A stretch of 64,000 nucleotides of DNA from Candidatus Woesearchaeota archaeon (GCA_035363095.1 DAOSEK010000001.1:82473-146472), one strand, 5' to 3'; positions 2,753 through 52,413 are shown, counted from the stretch's first letter. Numbers and translations: made by a program. Notes: generated by a model not told the origin, from the sequence alone.

Positions 2753-3670
2753 TTATAAGTTTGACTGCAAGGTTTGCTCAGGCGTAAGGGTGGTTATTAT
2801 AGGGGTTTTTAGCACTAAAATGGTATGCTCATATTGAGATACTAATCCATCTGATGCTTCTACTAATGGTTTGTATTCATCTATAGAATTTGACCTTAAC
2901 AGGTCGCCAAGTGCTAATGCGACCATGGCTTTTGAGAATTTTTTTTCAAGCCACCTGCGTGCAAAAGGCATTTTGTTATAGCTTTTTATTTGCTCTCCTA
3001 TTTTTTTTGTTATTGGATTTCTTGTGTTTTTTATTTCTATTTCTATGAAAACATTTGCAATTCCCTGTTCTGTTACTCTGCCACCCCCCGTGGTTGCAAA
3101 TGGCTCCATGGCTATTACCTGACCTTCTATTAGTTCTGATGAGTCGTTTGTATTATAGTTTGGGATGCTTGGATGTGTGTGTAGTGTATAGATATCCATG
3201 GTGTGTCCTGATAGGTTTTTTATTGGGTTAAAGCCCTTTTTTGAGATTGCATTTTCTATTGCACTGCCAACTGATGAGATTTTAGCACCTATCATAACAG
3301 CTTTAAAGCCTGCTTCAAAGCCCTCTTTTGAGGCTAGCAAAAGCTCTTTATTTTTACCACTTAAATCGATTGTTATTGCTGTGTCTCCTATCGCTCCGTT
3401 TACCATCGCTCCAACATCTAGTTTTATTATATCTTCTCCAATCAGGGTATTGTCGTCTATTGCAGGACAGAAATGAGCAGCGGTGTTGTTTAGTGAAATT
3501 TGTGCAGGGAAAGCTATTTGCCCTCCTTCTTTTATGATTCTTTCTTCAATTAAATCAAGTATTTCTCTTATGATTGCACCTTTTTTGATTAGGGATACGC
3601 CATAGTCCCTTGCGATTGCTGCAATCTTGCCTGCCATTAGCCAGTCTTTGTATTGTTTGTTAGTTTCCAT
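2753..3670 (-). CDS. map: Methionine aminopeptidase, type 2 (archaeal MetAP)
   Basis: 305 aa with the pita-bread fold signature of archaeal MetAP2: AAHFCP, D..G, HTHPSIPNY, EPFATTGGG. Confidence 0.75.
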   Translation of the reverse strand: METNKQYKDWLMAGKIAAIARDYGVSLIKKGAIIREILDLIEERIIKEGGQIAFPAQISLNNTAAHFCPAIDDNTLIGEDIIKLDVGAMVNGAIGDTAITIDLSGKNKELLLASKEGFEAGFKAVMIGAKISSVGSAIENAISKKGFNPIKNLSGHTMDIYTLHTHPSIPNYNTNDSSELIEGQVIAMEPFATTGGGRVTEQGIANVFIEIEIKNTRNPITKKIGEQIKSYNKMPFARRWLEKKFSKAMVALALGDLLRSNSIDEYKPLVEASDGLVSQYEHTILVLKTPIITTLTPEQTLQSNL

Positions 3671-17486: not shown

Positions 17487-17651
17487 ATCAACCTCACCCT
17501 GAATGGCGAGGCCTGTTGGTAATGTAAAAGCATACGCTGTATTAACGCGAGGTTGTTGATTACAAAAAAGCGTACTGAGTCCTCTTGTTGAAACACGAGA
17601 TATGCTTTACTATTGACCAAAGTGTGCGACTGAGAAGAATTTTATGAAATC
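17487..17651. repeat. Modular intergenic repeat: hairpin module plus K-box/palindrome-variant
   Basis: ATCAACCTCACCC...GCGAGGTTGTTGAT forms an imperfect inverted-repeat hairpin. It is followed by a CTCTTGTTGAAACACGAG stem-loop, then a degenerate K-box (TTGACCAAAGTGTGCGAC) and the variant TTTTATGAAATC. The sequence matches the copies at 22964, 28284, 45694 and 49257. Confidence 0.75.
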
Positions 17652-22963: not shown

Positions 22964-23226
22964 GATTTCATGAAATCCAGTTCATTCGCATACTTTGGTC
23001 AATAGAAAAGCATACCTCGTGTTTCAACACGAGGACTCGGTACGCTTTTTTGTAATCAACAACCTCGCTGAATGCAGCGCATGCTTTTATATTACCAACA
23101 TACCTCGCTCTTTAGGGTGAGGTTGTTGATTTTTCAAGCCAAAGTAAGAATAGACGGCTTCATGGACGAAAAACCTCGACTATTCACGAGATACCTCGGC
23201 ATTTATGCCGAGGTTTTTCATTTGAA
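22964..23226. repeat. Modular intergenic repeat, most complete copy (palindrome, K-box, hairpin module, M4 hairpin)
   Basis: Begins with GATTTCATGAAATC and the K-box-rc. It carries the approximately 115-nt hairpin module in reverse orientation and ends with AAACCTCGACTATTCACGAGATACCTCGGCATTTATGCCGAGGTTTTTCATTT. Confidence 0.75.
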
Positions 23227-27525: not shown

Positions 27526-28251
27526 TTATGATGAGTTAGGTCCAATTTCTTTTAATCTTTCTTGATTAGTAATATATCTTGATGCAATTTCCTCAAGACC
27601 TTTTTTTGAATGAATGTCAGTGATGCCAGAAAATAATAAATCTGCACCTTCTAAAATTGGTTTAATATTAGGATTTTTTATTGCATATTCTGGCATTGTA
27701 TTTTTATGAATAATTCCATTGGTTTTAATGGCGTTATCAATTCTGTGAACAAGAGAATTCATTTGTTTATCTCTTTCTTGTTTATCACCAGAAGGCATAT
27801 AATGTAAAATTATTTGATGGGTTTGGTATGCAGGAAAAGTATGCATACCACCGATATTATCTGTAGGAAAAGGACGTTTTACATCAGTTCTAAATCCAAT
27901 AACATATTTTCCAAATAATTTTGCATAAGAAGCCTCAACTACTACTCCTTCATCAATAGGTTCATCGAAGTTTACAACAACGACATCACTTCTTGGAATA
28001 AAAATGCCCATATCAAGAAGATAAATTATATTCTGAAATGCAGAGTTGATTTGATCTTGTTGAAGTTTTCCTAAAAGAGCTTTTGTTAAATTTCCAAATT
28101 CAAAACCATCTCTTTGAGGAAAATTTGCTTTGTAACCAAGTCCTTCTAATCCTTCAACTAATTGAGAATTGAAATGCGTTTCTCTGCCATTAAATAATGT
28201 AGCAGCAGGATATATTATGATTTTTTTTGTCATAGAATAAAGAAATCTCAT
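27526..28251 (-). CDS. Nucleoside 2-deoxyribosyltransferase-like protein
   Basis: N-terminal IIIYPAATLFN...GYKANFPQRDG resembles the NDT/Rossmann-like motif. 241 aa. Confidence 0.4.
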   Translation of the reverse strand: MRFLYSMTKKIIIYPAATLFNGRETHFNSQLVEGLEGLGYKANFPQRDGFEFGNLTKALLGKLQQDQINSAFQNIIYLLDMGIFIPRSDVVVVNFDEPIDEGVVVEASYAKLFGKYVIGFRTDVKRPFPTDNIGGMHTFPAYQTHQIILHYMPSGDKQERDKQMNSLVHRIDNAIKTNGIIHKNTMPEYAIKNPNIKPILEGADLLFSGITDIHSKKGLEEIASRYITNQERLKEIGPNSS

Positions 28252-28283
28252 TAGTGATATAAATTTATCTGTGATTGTGTTAA

Positions 28284-28475
28284 ATCAACAACCTCGCCCT
28301 AAATGGCGAGGTATGTTGGTAATATAAAAGCATGCGCTAAATTCGGCGAGGTTGTTGATTACAAAAAAGCGTACTGAGTCCTCGTGTTGAAACACGAGAT
28401 ATCCTTTTCTATCAATGAAAAACCTCGAAATAAATGCCACGTTATCTTGCGAATAGTTAAGGTCAATCGTTGCGT
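28284..28475. repeat. Modular intergenic repeat (hairpin module plus M4-rc module)
   Basis: ATCAACAACCTCGCCCTAAATGGCGAGGTATGTTGG...GGCGAGGTTGTTGAT, followed by CCTCGTGTTGAAACACGAG, then AAAACCTCGAAATAAATGCCACG...GCGAATAGTTAAGGTCAATCG. Confidence 0.75.
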
Positions 28476-33999: not shown

Positions 34000-35153
34000 A
34001 GTTTGTGCTGTTTTTCTTTTTTTGCTTTTGGCAAGAGATATGTTGTTTTGCCCTCGGAGCCACCAGCGATTTTGTCTGTGGAGATAAAATTGTCTTTTTC
34101 TAGTTTTTTAATTATTCTCTGAAATGTTTTGTAGGTCCCTTGACCACCTGATTCTGAAAAGAGTTTGTATGCGTCTCCTATTTTAATTTTTGTGTTTTCT
34201 TTGATTATCTCCATTATTTTTTTGTCAGAGTCTGTTAATGAATCTATTGGTTTTAGAAAAAATTGCTTTCTTAAATCTATTGCAGTTAATATGTCAGTTT
34301 CTTCAACTATTCTACTTGATCTTTTTTCAGCGATATTACCTGCTTGAAGCAAAAGAAATAATGCATATCTTATATCTTCTTGCAAGAATGTTTTTTCAGA
34401 TACTATTTTGATTGCGTTATCATTCCAAACTCCCTGATTGAATGCAAGTTCAATTCTTCTTTTTATTATTCCCAGTACTTCGCTAGGGGTATATTTTCTG
34501 AATTCTAAGATATCAAGGTTAAGTCTTGAGCTTATTCGCATGTCAAGATTTATGCTCCATTCTTTAAAATTTGTTACAAGAAGTATTGTCTTTTTGTATA
34601 TTTCTTCTAAAACGTAGTAAAGATAGTCTGTATCTTCGCATCTGTCAACTTCATCAAAGACAAATACTGCACTTGATTTGTTTATTATTTTTTTTGCTAC
34701 TTCAAATAATTCTTCAGTGTTTTTGTTGTGAGTGAATTGGTAGCCTATCTGCTTACAGATTTCATTCATTATTTTAAATGATGTGTTTTTCTGCCAACAA
34801 TTTATGTATATTGGATAGATATCATCTGTTTTTTCTGATAATTCTTCTATTATCTTTTTTACAGCAAGACTTTTTCCTATTCCTGCCCCGCCAAATATGA
34901 GAAGATTTCTTCCATTTCTTTGCATGAACAAAGGTTTTATACAATCTGCTATGTAGTGCTGTTCGTTTTCACGATAGGGTATTTCTTTAGGTGTATAGTC
35001 AAATTCTAATGCTATTGGATTTTTGAATATACTTTCATCGCTTTTTAGGATATCATCAAATAAGCTCATATTAAAATCAAAGTTTTTTTTTGGGTTTAAA
35101 AATCTTTTTGATTTTGCAACTCCATTTTTTGCATATTTTGAGTTTATAACCAA
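33996..35153 (-). CDS. cdc6: Orc1/Cdc6 replication initiator
   Basis: AAA+ Walker A GGAGIGKS and Walker B VFVFDEVD, with a C-terminal winged helix. Confidence 0.85.
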   Translation of the reverse strand: MVINSKYAKNGVAKSKRFLNPKKNFDFNMSLFDDILKSDESIFKNPIALEFDYTPKEIPYRENEQHYIADCIKPLFMQRNGRNLLIFGGAGIGKSLAVKKIIEELSEKTDDIYPIYINCWQKNTSFKIMNEICKQIGYQFTHNKNTEELFEVAKKIINKSSAVFVFDEVDRCEDTDYLYYVLEEIYKKTILLVTNFKEWSINLDMRISSRLNLDILEFRKYTPSEVLGIIKRRIELAFNQGVWNDNAIKIVSEKTFLQEDIRYALFLLLQAGNIAEKRSSRIVEETDILTAIDLRKQFFLKPIDSLTDSDKKIMEIIKENTKIKIGDAYKLFSESGGQGTYKTFQRIIKKLEKDNFISTDKIAGGSEGKTTYLLPKAKKEKQHKL

Positions 35154-35162
35154 AACTTTAAA

Positions 35163-35345
35163 GCCAAAGTATGAGAATGAGCTGGATTTTATGAAATGAA
35201 AAACCTTGGCGTAACTTCCAAAATATCTCGCAAATAGTTGAGGTTAAATGTTGAGGTTAAATGTTATGTGAATCCATATCTTCAAACTTTAGAACCCAAG
35301 ACCAAGCCTAAAGACCAAAGTATGAGAATGAGCTGGATTTTAGGA
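35163..35345. repeat. Modular repeat copy upstream of cdc6: two direct K-box/palindrome-variant units flanking a tandem GTTGAGGTTAAAT x2
   Basis: GCCAAAGTATGAGAATGAGCTGGATTTTATGAAATG occurs at 35163. GACCAAAGTATGAGAATGAGCTGGATTTTAGG occurs at 35313. The internal sequence is homologous to the reverse complement of 42480..42635. Confidence 0.7.
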
Positions 35346-35440
35346 AAACGATAAATGAGAGGGATGATTTTCACTAAAACACAATGTTTATAAAAAATTT
35401 AGATTTTTCATTTGGATAACTAGAACATAAAGGTGAGATA

Positions 35441-40885: not shown

Positions 40886-41204
40886 CGGGACGCAAAGCCA
40901 ACTCCGAGCAATCGAGGAAAGTCCGCCCACCTAAAAAAAGGCGCTTTTAATCTTTAAAAGATTTCGAAAGGGATGGCAACTGCACAGAAACAAAACCACC
41001 TAAAAACTTGTTATGATGCTTGCGAAGAAGATGGTGACATCTTTGAGACTAACCAGCAGAACATTTGGTTTTTAGGAAAGGATGAAAAGGCAGTCCCGCC
41101 TGGTGCAAGGCCTTTAGCGCCGCTTAGTCGAATGTTGGCAAATCCATCCTTTGCTTTAGGGCAAAATAGGGGATTTCACAAAAGGCGGCTTATTTGCGTC
41201 CCTT
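40886..41204 (+). ncRNA. rnpB: RNase P RNA
   Basis: The P1 strands GGGACGCAAAGCC and GGCTTATTTGCGTCCC pair. CR-I/P4 is GAGGAAAGTCCGCCCACC. CR-V-like is CACAAAAGGCGGCTTA. A T8 terminator follows. The track ORF 40973..41221 is spurious. Confidence 0.75.
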
Positions 41205-45468: not shown

Positions 45469-45693
45469 TATTTACATAAGTGTATAATTTGGGTTTTTAA
45501 ATATATGGTATTGAAAGTTAAGGATTCTTTTTGGTTTTTTTTAAAAATAGATTTTTAGGTTATATAATCTTAATTAGTACATGATATAAATAGAAACAAT
45601 ATATATGCTTCAATATCGCTTTATAAATAATTCCGTTAGTCAACTTATGCGCGTTATCTAGCAATGTATACTATATTTTTTTATTCTTAGCGA

Positions 45694-45845
45694 AATCAAC
45701 AACCTCGCCCTAAAGGCCGAGATATGTTGGTAATATAAAAGCATGCGCTGTATTAAAGCGAGGTTGTTGATTACAAGGTTGTTGATTACAAAAAAGCGTA
45801 CCAAGTTTTCGTGTTTAAACATCAGGTATCCTTTTCTATCAATAA
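45694..45845. repeat. Modular intergenic repeat (hairpin module with internal 14-nt duplication GGTTGTTGATTACA x2)
   Basis: AATCAACAACCTCGCCCTAAAGGCCGAGATATGTTGG...GCGAGGTTGTTGATTACAAGGTTGTTGATTACAAAAAAGCGTACCAAG. Confidence 0.75.
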
Positions 45846-46316: not shown

Positions 46317-48098
46317 ATGGTAGATGTATGCAAAGGTAGAAGCCCTATATGTTCTGTTGTTGGGCATGTGGACCATGGAAAGTCAAGTATATTAGATAGG
46401 ATTAGAAATTCAAGAATAGTTGATAAAGAGGCAGGGGGGATTACACAAGCAATAGGCGCCTCAATTGTTCCTTTTGAAACTATCTGCAAGAATTGTATGC
46501 CTGTTTTGGGAAAGCTTGATAATAAAATAAAGGTGCCAGGCATTTTATTTATTGACACTCCAGGTCATGCGGCATTTACAAATTTAAGAAAAAGAGGAGG
46601 AAATCTTTCTGATATTGCAATTTTGGTGGTTGATATTAATGAAGGATTTAAGCCTCAAACAATTGAATCTGTAAAGATTCTTAAGATGTATAAAACTCCT
46701 TTTATTATTGCAGCAAATAAAATTGATAAGATTTCAGGGTATTCTAAGAAGGATAATTCGGTTATAAAATCAATATCAATGCAAAAAGAGGATGTTTTGC
46801 AAAGAGTTGAGAATGGGATTTATAGTATTGTAGGTCAACTCTATGAGCTTGGGATTAATTCTGAAAGGTTTGATAGAGTAAGTGATTATACAAAGCAGAT
46901 TGCTATTGTTCCATGTTCTGCTTTAACTGGAGAGGGAATAGCTGAGATTTTAATGCTCATATCAGGACTTGCACAAAAGTTTTTGGAGTGCGATTTGAGT
47001 TTTAGTGTAGATAACCTAGCTAAGGGAACTATTCTTGAGGTGATGGAGGTTAAAGGTCTAGGGGTTACAATAGATGTAATTTTATTTGACGGTACATTGA
47101 AGGTAGGAGATACAATTTGCTTAGGAGGACTTAATGGACCAATTGTTACAAAGGTTAAGGCTCTTCTTATGCCTTCACCTTTAAGTGAGATAAGAGATAA
47201 AAAGGGAGTATTCAAATCTGTTAAGAATGCTGTTGCAGCTACAGGTGTTAAGATTTCTGCTCCTCTTTTAGATGAAGCGATGGCAGGCACTCCGGTATTT
47301 GCATCTGAAAATACTTTAGAAGATATTGAGAGAAAAAAAAGACAAGTGTTAAAAGAGATTGATACTGTATATATTGAGACTCAAAAGAGCGGGGTAATTG
47401 TTAAAGCGGATAGTCTTGGAAGCCTTGAAGCACTTGTAACTTTGCTCAAGGAAGAAAAAGTTCCAATAAGAAAGGCAAGTGTAGGGGATATTACTAAAAA
47501 TGACTTTTTGGAAGCTGAAGGGATGATTTCAGAAAAGCCAGAATTTGTGGTAATTTTGGGTTTTAATGTTGGATTTAAATGTAACCAAGAAGATTTTAAG
47601 AAAATCAAAGTGATTAGTAATGAAGTGATTTATAGGATAATCGAAGAGTACAAAAAATGGTCTGATGAGATTAAAAAACTTGAAGAACTAAAAAAGCTAG
47701 GGGAGCTTACATCCCCATGTAAAATTAAGTATCTGCCAAATCATACATTCAGGCAATCTAATCCAGCGATAATAGGTGTTGAAATAATGCTAGGAACCCT
47801 AAAAGTTGGAGCTAGACTCATGAAAGAAAATGGAAATATGGCAGGGATTGTAAAAGGGATTCAAATTGAGAGTGAAAGTCTAAAATCTGCAGATGCAAAA
47901 AGTAATGTTGCAGTTTCTATAAATGATGTGTGCTGTGGAAGACAGATTAATGAAGGAGAGATTTATTATAGTGCCATGAATGAAGAAGAGTTTAAAAAAT
48001 TGAAGAACGCAAAAGAGTTGTTAAGCCCTGCCCAAATTGAAGTATTAAAAGAGATAGCTATAATTATGAGAAAGAGTAATGAGATGTGGGGAGTATAA
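46317..48098 (+). CDS. infB: Translation initiation factor aIF5B (IF2 homolog)
   Basis: G-domain GHVDHGKSS, DTPGHAAF and NKID, with beta-barrel domains II-IV. Confidence 0.9.
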   Translation: MVDVCKGRSPICSVVGHVDHGKSSILDRIRNSRIVDKEAGGITQAIGASIVPFETICKNCMPVLGKLDNKIKVPGILFIDTPGHAAFTNLRKRGGNLSDIAILVVDINEGFKPQTIESVKILKMYKTPFIIAANKIDKISGYSKKDNSVIKSISMQKEDVLQRVENGIYSIVGQLYELGINSERFDRVSDYTKQIAIVPCSALTGEGIAEILMLISGLAQKFLECDLSFSVDNLAKGTILEVMEVKGLGVTIDVILFDGTLKVGDTICLGGLNGPIVTKVKALLMPSPLSEIRDKKGVFKSVKNAVAATGVKISAPLLDEAMAGTPVFASENTLEDIERKKRQVLKEIDTVYIETQKSGVIVKADSLGSLEALVTLLKEEKVPIRKASVGDITKNDFLEAEGMISEKPEFVVILGFNVGFKCNQEDFKKIKVISNEVIYRIIEEYKKWSDEIKKLEELKKLGELTSPCKIKYLPNHTFRQSNPAIIGVEIMLGTLKVGARLMKENGNMAGIVKGIQIESESLKSADAKSNVAVSINDVCCGRQINEGEIYYSAMNEEEFKKLKNAKELLSPAQIEVLKEIAIIMRKSNEMWGV

Positions 48099-48601
48099 AT
48101 TTTTTCAAAATGAAAGGAGAAATTCTTAATTCAAGAAAGGCAAATGATTTATTAGAAATTATTGCTAATCAGTTAGGCTCTGATAAAAAGGAATTAAAAT
48201 CTATGTTTGCAGAATATGTATTCTTGCTTCTTGGAGAAGGAAAAGTATATCTTGCAAGAAAGGAAGCATTCTCAATAGAACTTGATGAATTGAGAATAAA
48301 TTCAATAGGCGTATATCTTGGAACGATAGAAGAAAGCGGATTTAGATATTCAATAGAAGGCGCCCAAAAACTTTCTTTATTCTCAACTAAAAACATTCTT
48401 TTGTTAAATGAGGAACAAGCAAAACTCTGGATGAAAGGAGAAGATGTTACGGGAGATTTTTCTAAATACGATTTATATGTAATATTGAAGTATGAAGATT
48501 TTATATTAGGATGTGGAAAAAACTCAAACAAAAAAAAGAGGTTAATAAATTTTACACCTAAAGAAAGAAGGATAACAACTGATATGCCTTTCTTGGCCTA
48601 A
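48086..48601 (+). CDS. Putative PUA-domain RNA-binding protein (Nip7-like)
   Basis: 171 aa. The C-terminal YVILKYEDFILGCGKNS...KRLINF resembles a PUA beta-barrel. The assignment is weak. Confidence 0.3.
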   Translation: MGSINFFKMKGEILNSRKANDLLEIIANQLGSDKKELKSMFAEYVFLLLGEGKVYLARKEAFSIELDELRINSIGVYLGTIEESGFRYSIEGAQKLSLFSTKNILLLNEEQAKLWMKGEDVTGDFSKYDLYVILKYEDFILGCGKNSNKKKRLINFTPKERRITTDMPFLA

Positions 48602-49087: not shown

Positions 49088-49456
49088 AGACAAAATTATA
49101 CAAAATGAACTGGATTTCATGAAATGAAAAAACTCTGCATAAATAATGAGGTATCTTGCGAACAGTCGAGGTTAATCCTTGCATTAACCCCTCTATTCAA
49201 ACTTTTGCCTCAAGAATAAACCTCAAGACCAAAGAATGCGAAGTAATGCTGGATTTCATGAAATCAACAATCTCGCCCTAAAGGGCGAGGCATGTTGGTA
49301 ATATAAAAGCATCAGCTGTATTAAAACGAGGTTGTTGATTACAAAAAAGTGTACCGAGTCCTCGTGTTGAAACACGAGGTATGCTTTTCTATTAACCAAA
49401 GTATGCAAAATGACAGATTCATGAAATCAAAGTATACAAAATGGGCTAGATTTCAC
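49088..49456. repeat. Composite repeat cluster: four K-box/palindrome units plus M3 module plus hairpin module
   Basis: K-box plus GGATTTCATGAAATG occurs at 49088. An M3 module lies between the K-box units, containing GAACAGTCGAGGTTAATCC. K-box plus GGATTTCATGAAATC occurs at 49228. The hairpin module spans 49257-49372 (AACAATCTCGCCC...GAGGTTGTTGAT, CCTCGTGTTGAAACACGAGG). Two more degenerate K-box units follow. Confidence 0.75.
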
Positions 49457-49582: not shown

Positions 49583-50194
49583 ATGGAATTACAAAATGTT
49601 GAAATTAAAGCATTTAACAGGTGGAGTACAAACGGCATAGAACTGACAGATGAAGGCCTAAAAAGATACGTAAATTTAAGCCCTAAACTGGTGCCTAAGA
49701 CAGGTGCAAAATACTCAGGACAAAGATTTTATAAATCAAGAACTTTCATCGTCGAGAGACTTATAAACAAAATAATGGTCGCAGGCCATAGAGCTAAAAA
49801 ACATAAAATCACTTCAGGATTTATGACTGGAAAAGGAGTAACAGCATATAAAATTGTAGAAGATGCATTAAGCATAATTGAAAGAAAAACAGGAGCAAAC
49901 CCAATTGCAGTGTTTGTAAAAGCACTTGAAAACGGTGCGACAAGAGAAGAGATTGTTAATATAGAATATGGTGGGGCTAGATACACAAAAGCAGTAGATT
50001 GCGCCCCTCAAAGAAGGGTTGATTTAGTTTTAAGATTCTTCATTCAAGGTGCTTATGCGAAATCTTTTAACTCAAAAAAAGGAATTAGAGACGCATTAGC
50101 AGATGAGATTTTAGCAGCATATAATCTAAGTCAAAACTCATTTGCAGTATCTAAAAAGCTTGAGCTTGAAAGACAAGCAGATGCTTCAAGATAA
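49583..50194 (+). CDS. rps7: Ribosomal protein S7 (uS7)
   Basis: 203 aa with the S5e/S7 signature (KAVDCAPQRRVDLV). It is not linked to rps12 or fusA here. Confidence 0.9.
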   Translation: MELQNVEIKAFNRWSTNGIELTDEGLKRYVNLSPKLVPKTGAKYSGQRFYKSRTFIVERLINKIMVAGHRAKKHKITSGFMTGKGVTAYKIVEDALSIIERKTGANPIAVFVKALENGATREEIVNIEYGGARYTKAVDCAPQRRVDLVLRFFIQGAYAKSFNSKKGIRDALADEILAAYNLSQNSFAVSKKLELERQADASR

Positions 50195-50236
50195 AACCTT
50201 TTATATCATTATTATTTTTTCTTTTTGAATTTAACC
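50165..50236. repeat. Direct repeat copy 1 (S7 3' end plus terminator)
   Basis: TTGAAAGAcaaGCAGATGCTTCAAGATAAAACCTTTTATATCATTATTATTTTTTCTTTTTGAATTTAACC. It is identical, bar 3 nt, to 50765..50836. Confidence 0.85.
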
Positions 50237-50341
50237 GCGTTTTTAAACAGATGGCTTTATTTGTTTAATTTGTCGTTTAAATGAGTTTTTGGAATAATTC
50301 TTTTAAATATACTTTAGTATTTGTAAAAGATTAAATAGAAA

Positions 50342-50794
50342 GTGATTAATTTTTGCAAGATGGTATCTGAAAATAAACCTCTAAAAGTCTATGTTGCTGG
50401 AAAATTTGAAAAAAAGCTTATTGTTTTAAATTTGTATGAAAGGCTCAAAAGTATGGGTCACGAGATTTCTTATGATTGGACGAACCATATTGAGATTAAG
50501 CCATACTCCGAAAATGTTAGGCTTGCAACTACCTACTCAGATTCTGAGTTAGAAGGCATATCAAACAGCGATGTTTTCATTTATCTTTCCGATAATGAGG
50601 GAACTACGCTTAAGATGGAAGTGGGCGCAGCAATTATGGCCAAGATGATTACAGGAAGCCCAAAACAAATATACATTGTGGGAGAATATAACGATAAGTC
50701 ACCTTGGTTTATGAATGAAAAGTTTGTTAAGCGACTTGATAATATTGATGATGTTATAAAAGATATTGAAAGATATGCAGATGCTTCAAGATAA
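50342..50794 (+). CDS. Nucleoside 2-deoxyribosyltransferase-like protein; C-terminal 5 aa (ADASR) encoded by the duplicated S7 3' end
   Basis: KVYVAGKFEKK... has an NDT-like N-terminus. The last codons lie inside direct-repeat copy 2. Confidence 0.4.
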   Translation: MINFCKMVSENKPLKVYVAGKFEKKLIVLNLYERLKSMGHEISYDWTNHIEIKPYSENVRLATTYSDSELEGISNSDVFIYLSDNEGTTLKMEVGAAIMAKMITGSPKQIYIVGEYNDKSPWFMNEKFVKRLDNIDDVIKDIERYADASR

Positions 50795-50836
50795 AACCTT
50801 TTATATCATTATTATTTTTTCTTTTTGAATTTAACC
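50765..50836. repeat. Direct repeat copy 2, exactly 600 nt downstream of copy 1
   Basis: TTGAAAGAtatGCAGATGCTTCAAGATAAAACC...GAATTTAACC. Confidence 0.85.
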
Positions 50837-50891
50837 AAGTTTTTTGGCCTAGAAATTTAGTTGTCTAATTTTTCTTTTTAGAAATCATCAG

Positions 50892-51836
50892 CTATACATG
50901 AAGGGTAACTAACGCATACTTTAATTTACTACCTATCCTTTTGAGAAAACCAGGCTTTTCGTAATCTTTTGTGACCTTACCTTCTTTATATTCTAATCCA
51001 TAAGGTTTTAAGATCATAGAAATGTCTTTTTCAAGTGTTTCTGAACTGTATGTTTTTGTAAGTTCAAAAAGGCATTTTTGGAAATGATCAGGATAATAAT
51101 CAAAGCAACCCTCTTTTGCAAGTGTTCTCAAGTTTTTTAAAGATTCTTTATATTCCTTAGTTCGCTTTATCTTAATAGGCTTTGATAATATTCTTAGATA
51201 TTTGTTATTTAGAAGTTCTAATGAGTTTTGAGCATCTTTAATGAATGTTTTATCACTAATCTCTTCAATAAGAGACTCTGATTCGGATAATAAATCTCCA
51301 AAAATTAGTAAATCATCTTTATCTTTATATCTTTTCATTCTTTGAATATTATCTTTTAGATAACTCTTGTTAATGTATTGTGATAAATTGTATATGGTTT
51401 CATCAATGCCTAGTTTTAAATCGTTATTCAAATCTGTTAATTCGTGGCATAATTTTTGAGAATCTTTATATTTGGCGAGTTTAAGATTTGTATTGATTTG
51501 TTGTATTAATTTCTCAGTTTTCAATTTTACCGATAAATTGAATACTTCAGCTTCAGATACAAAACATCCTTTGCGAAGGGATTTGTTTTTTGAAGGACTT
51601 AGGGAGTTATATTTTTCTAAATCAGATATGTGAAATCTTATTTTATAATCCTTGCCTTGAGACATCTTTAATCCTAGATGGAGATTACACATATCATCTA
51701 AAAAATCGTATTGATCAATTTCTATTTTGGGATTTTTGTGATTAAAATGAGAACTTGAAATAGAGTTAATAATATCTTCAATGTTAGATAGTCCTTCTCT
51801 TTCTTCAAACTCTTTTATTTGGGATTTGATGTTCAT
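50892..51836 (-). CDS. Hypothetical K-rich protein
   Basis: 314 aa ORF. Confidence 0.35.
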   Translation of the reverse strand: MNIKSQIKEFEEREGLSNIEDIINSISSSHFNHKNPKIEIDQYDFLDDMCNLHLGLKMSQGKDYKIRFHISDLEKYNSLSPSKNKSLRKGCFVSEAEVFNLSVKLKTEKLIQQINTNLKLAKYKDSQKLCHELTDLNNDLKLGIDETIYNLSQYINKSYLKDNIQRMKRYKDKDDLLIFGDLLSESESLIEEISDKTFIKDAQNSLELLNNKYLRILSKPIKIKRTKEYKESLKNLRTLAKEGCFDYYPDHFQKCLFELTKTYSSETLEKDISMILKPYGLEYKEGKVTKDYEKPGFLKRIGSKLKYALVTLHV

Positions 51837-51996: not shown

Positions 51997-52413
51997 ATGG
52001 TAAGGGTTAATTTGATTTCACCTAATAAACTCTCAGACCAGCATCTTATTGCTGAATACGATGAGATTTTAATGCTTTTAGGATATGTTAAAAGGTTTCC
52101 TGCGCCCATAGGGATTCCAAAAAAATACACTTTGGGTAAAGGACATATGAAGTTCTTTAAGGATAAATTATTGTATCTTAAAAAAAGGCATGAGAGTATA
52201 AAAAGTGAGATGAAAAAGAGAGATTTTAAGACAAACATTACGATTGATCTTTTGGATTTTCCTAAAGAACTTGTTAATGATTGGGCACCTGATAATGATG
52301 CTATTAAGAAGATAAAAGAAAGGCTTGTTTTTAAACTTAAACTAAAACCTTGGTATTATCGCTATTATGGGGAGAATAAAAATCCTGAATTTTTTTTGGC
52401 GCTAATGGATTAG
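51997..52413 (+). CDS. denV: Pyrimidine dimer DNA glycosylase (T4 endonuclease V / DenV family)
   Basis: N-terminal MVRVNLISPNKLSDQHLIAEYDE matches T4 endoV [23 protein letters not shown]. C-terminal KPWYYRYYG matches WYKYYG. Confidence 0.7.
   Translation: MVRVNLISPNKLSDQHLIAEYDEILMLLGYVKRFPAPIGIPKKYTLGKGHMKFFKDKLLYLKKRHESIKSEMKKRDFKTNITIDLLDFPKELVNDWAPDNDAIKKIKERLVFKLKLKPWYYRYYGENKNPEFFLALMD

Follow-up and report, generated by a model that had tools for sequence, protein, structure and literature searches.

The locus examined here lies in a stretch of 64,000 nucleotides from a Candidatus Woesearchaeota archaeon (GCA_035363095.1 DAOSEK010000001.1:82473-146472), referred to throughout as the window. 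The window is archaeal, with an archaeal RNase P RNA at 40887-41202, and its proteins have public copies that bear the label Candidatus Woesearchaeota. The locus raises the question of how a small accessory gene came to end in the last codons, the stop codon and the T-rich downstream sequence of its neighbour, the gene for ribosomal protein uS7 (S7, rps7). The initial annotation had reported a segment of this kind twice, with a gene like that of nucleoside 2-deoxyribosyltransferase (NDT) between the copies, and had read it as the trace of a tandem duplication or site-specific insertion. Population and sister-species data place the arrangement considerably further back, and it is best explained, with a probability of about 0.62, by an old duplicative illegitimate recombination at the short motif TTGAA(A/G)G, which would have stacked the contents of two gene islets and left copies that later recombined with one another. 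The locus adds an unusually well documented example to the known cases of duplicative recombination, illegitimate or homologous, next to a conserved gene, and it reflects fairly ordinary genome plasticity.

The repeat and the source of the accessory gene's tail

The S7 gene (49583..50194, plus strand) encodes 203 amino acids and matches PF00177 with 128.8 bits (cut-off 24, E=1.6e-37); the match spans positions 2 to 148 of the 148 in the profile, making the protein a full-length member of the family. Its last 29 nt fall within the first copy of a direct repeat that a repeat search of the window places at 50166-50244 and 50766-50844, both on the plus strand, with a length of 79 nt, an identity of 95% (4 mismatches) and an offset of exactly 600 nt. 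Within it an exact core of 60 nt, at 50177-50236 and 50777-50836, occurs twice in the window against an expectation of 0 from 100 shuffles. The 72-nt segment initially described (50165-50236) is accordingly confirmed, its copy lying 600 nt away and differing at three positions (50165, 50174 and 50176). The first copy, R, holds the last nine S7 codons (…LERQADASR), the TAA at 50192-50194 and two T-runs (T6 and T5), in agreement with the earlier description. The second, R', provides the last nine codons (…IERYADASR) and the TAA at 50792-50794 of the open reading frame (ORF) downstream, followed by the same T-runs, here a presumed terminator. A fainter and older similarity, seen only with the sister species aligned, stretches both copies to about 115-125 nt (to ~50290 and ~50881, respectively). 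These degenerate distal parts, 50245..50290 and 50845..50881 on the plus strand, are about 60% identical in the window. From the alignment of all copies, the segment originally duplicated measured some 115-125 nt and ran from TTGAAAG to …CTTTTTAG.

The direction of copying follows from the distribution of the shared C-terminus. The motif ERQAD(A/S)SR* closes all 79 of 79 S7 proteins from related Woesearchaeota, while homologues of the accessory protein stop 3-6 residues earlier, typically in …EL(S/K)xx* with the pattern …(V/I)(I/L)xE(L/I)xxx*. Because the motif is universal in the related S7 proteins and foreign to the accessory family, the tail, stop codon and T-runs of the accessory gene derive from S7, and the chimeric C-terminus supplied by the second copy (…YADASR*), as the initial annotation had it, is real. 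The accessory gene most likely also uses an oligo-T terminator of the S7 type, judging from the T-runs that it carries.

The accessory gene occupies 50360..50794 on the plus strand and encodes 144 amino acids, with its last nine codons and stop inside R'. The 150-residue product first proposed corresponds to an extension of the reading frame to GTG 50342, which does exist; the start at ATG 50360 is the most likely true one, since all gene callers choose it and a conserved TATA-like box stands upstream. This box, ATTAAATA at 50330..50337 (plus strand), is centred about 26 nt before ATG 50360, and four relatives (L011, L013, L016 and L184) have it, equally far from the start, in the form (G)A(T/C)TAAATA. 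This placement suggests a leaderless transcript of the accessory gene.

The two-copy structure is also found well beyond the assembly in which it was noticed. The exact S7 protein occurs on 22 contigs, and ten of these loci were compared. Both copies, at the 600-nt offset, are present in nine of them, inside long contigs that come from different projects in JGI, ENA and NCBI. The copies differ from each other at fixed positions, with copy 2 present as two population haplotypes (T..AA and C..GC). Logan contigs, built with short k-mers, end 85 nt past the stop of the neighbouring 314-residue ORFan, inside R', or in another case in R; such breaks are to be expected where a short k-mer meets a true repeat. 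The concern over assembly error that accompanied the original description is thus set aside at the level of assemblies.

Islet forms and the later history of the copies

To the right of R' the window continues with a gene of 314 codons on the minus strand (50892..51836), an ORFan and the second cargo of the islet. It has no Pfam or NCBIfam match, and a collection of 5.8 billion proteins holds only two clusters of it, each belonging to this genus. Next comes a Pyr_excise gene (51997..52413, plus strand; PF03013, E=6e-14), pyrimidine-dimer DNA glycosylase-like, which forms the conserved right border of the islet. The S7 proteins of the genus constitute an isolated cluster of 11 variants at 94% identity or more, the next S7 standing at 72%, and in every variant with downstream sequence (seven besides that of the window) R leads on to the accessory gene or to the promoter of that gene. 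In 79 Woesearchaeota further removed, no member of the accessory family was found closer than 4 kb to S7. Being present across the variants of the genus and missing from these, the adjacency of S7 and the accessory gene is genus-wide and old.

The islet exists in three forms. Form A consists of S7, R, the accessory gene and Pyr_excise, and is found in L012/13/14, L184/185 and L016, with the gene ending in …IEGLIL* and Pyr_excise starting 30 nt further on, free of R' and the ORFan; Pyr_excise accordingly stands directly 3' of the accessory gene, as is clear in L013, L016 and L184. Form B, that of the window, comprises S7, R, the accessory gene, R', the ORFan and Pyr_excise. Form C has S7, R, the ORFan and Pyr_excise. 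The ORFan occurs only in forms that carry copy 2, and additionally in the allele lacking the 600-bp unit that is described below, where the distal part of R' (50845..50881) is the native intergenic DNA between S7 and the 314-codon gene.

Form B is shared with a sister species known from two samples (L011 and L176), in which the junction, GATATTGAAAG|GCAGGC…, is the same as in the window. Its ORFan is 68% identical to the window's, its distal R' flank is orthologous to that of the window at 77% identity, and its repeat copies are more diverged (83-91%). The distal flank after R in L016 and L013, both of form A, nearly equals the segment after copy 2 in L011. The arrangement is therefore not recent: it recurs in the sister species, where the repeats have drifted further apart, which is largely what the initial annotation had itself named as the mark of an ancient and stable feature.

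The near-identity of the copies in the window has to be read against this age. Over the proximal ~80 nt the two are 94-95% identical, while for either of them the identity with copies from other species is no more than 75-82%, the pattern expected of concerted evolution. Both window copies carry an ATTATT insertion and the variant ACC; both copies of the L011 species carry GACGCT and AGCC. Synonymous divergence (dS) of the accessory gene between the window and L011 is 0.46. Between orthologous copies of R the identity is ~78%, which shows that constraint has not fixed the region, and independent drift since a shared origin cannot leave an exact core of 60 nt, which points to gene conversion as the process that keeps the copies alike in the window lineage. 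A candidate conversion tract has sharp boundaries at 50244 and 50844, and the copy-2 haplotypes differ from each other by copy-1-like bases, a pattern that fits conversion still in progress. Homogenisation is weaker in the L011 species, where the copies are 83% identical. Formation of the junction anew at the same microhomology is the less likely alternative to gene conversion.

Presence of the accessory gene is polymorphic within the window's own species, which consists of two strain clusters about 0.8% apart. In one allele (L006, ENA ERZ27252300) S7 is identical but precisely the 600-bp unit is missing, and the 314-codon gene comes directly after S7 and a single repeat. The allele falls within one of the two clusters, its flanks differ from those of filled conspecifics by 2-12 single-nucleotide polymorphisms per 5.3 kb, and the right end of its repeat, T…AA, matches one of the copy-2 haplotypes. 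As no raised divergence is linked to the indel, recent deletion through a crossover between the repeats is the simplest reading of this allele; the comparison is one at contig level, on a single metagenome contig.

The islet also moves between species. From the S7 stop to the start of Pyr_excise, over ~620 nt, L012/13 and L016 are 97-100% identical, while the genes on either side are only 71-88% identical, showing that a form A islet has been exchanged between species. The locus is a recombination mosaic whose left and right flanks yield conflicting trees, and the order in which forms A and B arose cannot be fixed for this reason; the junction between gene and Pyr_excise in form A and the region upstream of Pyr_excise in form B are likewise too diverged from each other to set a polarity. 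Small variable islets between conserved genes evidently travel across species in these uncultivated archaea.

Origin of the two-copy arrangement

Form B is the left part of form A up to …ATTGAA, continued in frame by the S7 tail with all that lies beyond that tail in form C. The favoured account gives form B a single origin, earlier than the split between the window and L011 lineages, through an illegitimate join between the last codons of the accessory gene and the S7 tail at TTGAA(A/G)G, with homologous pairing in the region of the S7 tail, so that an A-like and a C-like islet would have become stacked. Compared with the form A tail ATTGAAGGG and with S7 CTTGAAAGA, the junction ATTGAA|AG… suggests a microhomology of 7-8 nt, the parental forms being reconstructed ones, and the duplicated anchor amounts to the S7 tail plus ~95 nt downstream. 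Because the join fell in frame, the accessory gene ends in ERxADASR* with the S7 stop. Several routes could have led to this outcome. A fragment might have become circular and entered through one crossover within the ~125 nt of the S7-tail region; homology-facilitated illegitimate recombination (HFIR) and template switching are the other two. Later, in the window lineage, gene conversion would have prevented all but slight divergence of the proximal ~80 nt, with an occasional crossover between the copies deleting the 600-bp unit, as in L006.

A number of points weigh against this account. No C-type lineage older than L006 was found, leaving one 'parent' form hypothetical and the founding event itself not observed, and the L006 allele is a single metagenome contig. 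The flank trees, left against right, do not decide between A and B as the earlier form. The microhomology comprises just 7-8 nt in AT-rich DNA and presumes that the form A tail is ancestral, which is uncertain. The same junction formed twice at one microhomology could in principle mimic concerted evolution. Finally, the terminator and promoter roles are read from sequence only, and R shows no RNA structure beyond chance.

The proposed event has close counterparts in bacteria. In Escherichia coli, recircularised fragments that integrate by a single crossover produce anchor duplications of 109-950 bp (PMC3240628), and the same study gives a microhomology of 3-10 bp at HFIR junctions. Such Campbell-type integration and HFIR would share with the present locus a direct duplication of the anchor (here ~125 nt) that flanks the added DNA, a second junction at a short microhomology (here TTGAA(A/G)G), and independence from a dedicated recombinase. 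They differ in that the bacterial cases are experiments, while that of the present archaeon, a member of the DPANN group, is drawn from comparison; classical HFIR usually couples insertion with deletion, whereas a duplication is seen here; and the founding event is here ancient, its repeats being held alike, in all likelihood, by gene conversion. In PMC5361080, HFIR is proposed for the stacked orphan modules of type VI secretion system (T6SS) and rearrangement hotspot (Rhs) loci. Those of Rhs, contact-dependent inhibition (CDI) and T6SS loci resemble the islet in using a conserved upstream gene as anchor, in stacking new contents on old, and in the persistence between the contents of 3' fragments of the conserved gene, which permit later recombination (PMC5361080). 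Unlike them, the S7 islet has no toxin and immunity logic, a gene for a ribosomal protein serves as its anchor, just one step of stacking is visible, and the fragment retained is translated as the tail of the upstream cargo.

The locus offers a clean natural case, from a reduced DPANN genome, in which an accessory gene has been installed next to an essential one by means of borrowed codons, stop and terminator. The scar left behind acts as a recombination substrate in its own right, in which conversion would preserve the repeat and crossovers remove the gene. In practical terms, such repeats break short-k assemblies, yield chimeric tails that annotation does not flag, and mimic a recent insertion of a mobile element.

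Among the alternatives, the one that survives best, though it is unlikely, regards the NDT-like gene of ~130 residues as a recombinase-free mobile cassette of DPANN archaea, leaving as a circle of ~600 bp by recombination between R and R' and re-entering, through homology or microhomology, by a single crossover beside conserved genes, whose ends it would copy and whose stop and terminator it would borrow. A family-profile scan of metagenomes returned 80 other loci, though not the window's own species, and 41 non-redundant family genes from other metagenomes were screened. An independent member, 54% identical (L103, SDBV01005980.1, gene at 562-972), lies between a promoter with tRNA-Val(GAC) at 451-556 and a decayed copy of these at 965-1067; the copy is 103 nt long, 84-88% identical and 514 nt away, the start of the gene follows the tRNA by 6 nt, and the TAA of the gene falls in the duplicated TATA box, inside copy 2. 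Two further members have exact 14-nt repeats at the upstream border and over the stop, so that three of 41 family genes, against none of 279 background ORFs, show a repeat of at least 12 nt. The islet moreover moves between species, and an empty site exists. Against a cassette, relatives have the gene near the same anchor with no duplication, both at S7 (L013 and L184) and at tRNA-Val (L137 and L139, with tRNA-Val, a methyltransferase gene and the family gene in order). Since they already hold the gene at the anchor in this undoubled arrangement, ordinary allelic recombination suffices, and the logic of stacking extends to L103. In addition, about 38 of the 41 other members are free of flanking repeats, the 14-nt cases are A/T-rich stop/start overlaps, the excess of repeats is suggestive only because the sequences are A/T-rich, and a circular junction was never observed. 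The parallel at tRNA-Val within the same protein family does hint at a recurrent process.

Tandem duplication of the S7 tail together with the accessory gene, followed by loss of the second gene copy, is improbable. Unequal crossing-over at microhomology commonly yields tandem duplications, and the junction here lies at a microhomology and in frame; but only a module of 79-125 nt is doubled, rather than the unit, with no trace of a second gene copy. An extra, precise deletion would be required, and the ORFan after R', missing from forms that lack R', would be left unexplained. The segmental duplication first envisaged is for these reasons not upheld.

The other mechanism proposed at first, a site-specific insertion, is very improbable in the form of a recent integration in which the copies would be attL and attR of an integrase targeting the 3' end of S7. 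Direct repeats with the 3' end of a conserved gene around an accessory gene are its classic signature, a precise empty site exists in L006, and elsewhere a member of the family is enclosed by tRNA-Val and a decayed tRNA-Val copy; repeats resembling attL and attR, together with a precise empty site, are also what plain homologous recombination would leave. In called genes within 6 kb on either side at 10 loci, Pfam gave no match to an integrase, transposase or recombinase, and terminal inverted repeats are absent. The unit is just 600 bp with one gene of 144 codons, which is S7-adjacent genus-wide with a divergence that tracks its flanks. The repeats at the two loci are unrelated, S7 tail in one case and tRNA with promoter in the other, and in the second of these the duplication takes in the entire tRNA with its promoter rather than a 3' half. 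The islet shares with integrative elements at the 3' ends of tRNA and protein genes the repeats containing a gene's 3' end, the intact target and the precise excision, and differs from them in lacking an integrase, in its single-gene insert, in the old genus-wide adjacency and in repeats that are unrelated from locus to locus, that at S7 being simply the neighbour's own end.

An assembly artefact, whether a spurious duplication or a collapsed repeat yielding an 'empty' contig, is hardly credible: metagenome assemblies can misjoin at repeats, several contigs end at this one and the empty allele is known from one contig, but at least nine independent assemblies from different studies and assemblers agree on two copies, which show fixed differences and population haplotypes, the sister species has diverged copies in two samples, and the repeat of 79 nt is shorter than the final k-mer of k141 assemblies, so that the empty junction needs true spanning reads.

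Three further candidates were tried and dropped. An integron gene cassette was ruled out, as R is a copy of the S7 tail, is no better folded than its shuffles and has no integrase nearby. An RNA or attC-like element in R was abandoned since five folded versions of R gave no structure beyond shuffled sequence (z = +0.06 to +1.5) and the Rfam scan of the window, which returned only RNase P (archaeal RNA, 40887-41202) and one tRNA, placed no RNA element in R. A miniature inverted-repeat transposable element (MITE) or transposon was discarded for the 600-nt unit, the repeat search having found no terminal inverted repeats at the ends of the insert.

The accessory protein, its family and other features of the window

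The accessory protein was initially called NDT-like, a description that stands at the level of the superfamily. Scans of the 144- and 150-residue versions against Pfam and NCBIfam gave nothing significant; the 144-residue protein scores 14.1 bits against PF05014 (E=0.05), below the gathering score of 28.8, and so falls short of family membership. About 30 homologues, typically of 128-134 residues, were found in the collection of 5.8 billion proteins, and 14 of 29 reach PF05014 at E<=0.01, the best at 5.6e-5. A profile of the family finds NDT 4hx9 in the PDB (E=2.4e-4), with the match at the catalytic-Glu motif: the family's M-E-F-G aligns with G-M-E-L-G of Lactobacillus NDT (4hx9/1f8x), placing the invariant Glu of G-T-T-x-x-M-E-x-G-A-A at the catalytic Glu motif of that enzyme. 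An AlphaFold2 model of the 144-residue protein has a mean predicted local distance difference test score (pLDDT) of 92.4, and Foldseek with this model finds NDT 8pqr best (3e-4), then DNPH1/Rcl, BcmB and BlsM. At superfamily level the protein has, according to model and profile, an NDT/DNPH1-like fold with a predicted catalytic Glu after the third strand. It shares fold and Glu motif with the superfamily of NDT, DNPH1 (Rcl) and the BcmB-MilB N-glycosidases, but differs in remaining under the Pfam threshold and in belonging to an unannotated family of ~130 residues. By this resemblance, the enzyme would be an N-glycosidase or a deoxyribosyltransferase acting on nucleosides or nucleotides.

The accessory gene is functional and under purifying selection, with a dN/dS of 0.07-0.28 in both forms A and B. 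Its accessory status, also claimed from the start, is borne out by its absence from L006, by a frameshift in L016 and by its position beside S7 in this genus only. In L016 (4773-5198, from the GTDB representative CAZTMQ010000013.1) a one-base insertion, GGCTTTAAAAAG against GGCTCAAAAAG, disrupts the frame, and the gene is either a pseudogene or an assembly error. A second NDT-like gene had been listed at 27526..28251 as a paralog. It lies on the minus strand, and its product of 241 residues is a member of PF05014 (E=1.3e-7), so that the NDT assignment stands; close paralogy has been dropped, as neither BLASTP (E=3.9) nor hhalign (probability 0.2%) detects similarity between the two products.

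Several other observations concern the wider family. In L098, L099 and L106, at ~2980-3400, the family gene lies between a PUA-domain gene, homologous to that at 48086-48601 of the window, and an unannotated gene whose product starts with MNKEKIIKAGEIA and might, as a guess from that start, be a methionine aminopeptidase; ATGA stop/start overlaps occur on both sides, and the same 14-mer, AAAATTAAAATGAA, stands at both borders. Just upstream of the family gene in L101 (1-100 of Ga0307992_1014958) is a 56-nt tandem repeat in two copies, CGGAAGTAAAGTCCGCCTTAACACAGTCAGTCGAACTTAAGAA, and the unusually long tail of that gene's product, …IEHNNS*, is encoded by sequence ending in a 14-mer that recurs 23-36 nt before the start. 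In L137 (182-330) the 3' end of tRNA-Val(GAC) recurs ~80 nt past the tRNA as a second copy (GCG.AGGACCATT), which may be an att-like remnant. In one clade (L111, L123, L124 and L127; also L112/113, L125/126 and L131) many members lie ~30 nt upstream of, or near, tRNA-Ser(GGA).

The S7 gene is usually part of an S12-S7-EF-2 cluster. In the window it stands alone, with a minus-strand ORF of 95 residues on one side and the accessory gene on the other, and with aIF5B and the PUA-domain gene upstream; among the neighbouring ORFs scanned with Pfam, none encodes another ribosomal protein or an elongation factor.

The window also contains a dispersed, structured repeat of ~150-170 nt in at least five copies, with the core AACGAGGTTGTTGATTACAAAAAAG, for which 0 occurrences are expected by chance. 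No member of this repeat family has a match in Rfam. Its positions are 17546-17570(+), 23045-23069(-), 28270-28449, 35153-35347, 45692-45842, 49110-49158 and 49260-49395; one copy precedes S7 by ~190 nt. Those at 45692-45842 and 49260-49395, which share 86-92% identity, contain a long-range inverted repeat as well as two hairpins, CCTCGCC…GGCGAGG and CCTCGTG…CACGAGG. The family may represent a MITE-like element or a non-coding RNA.

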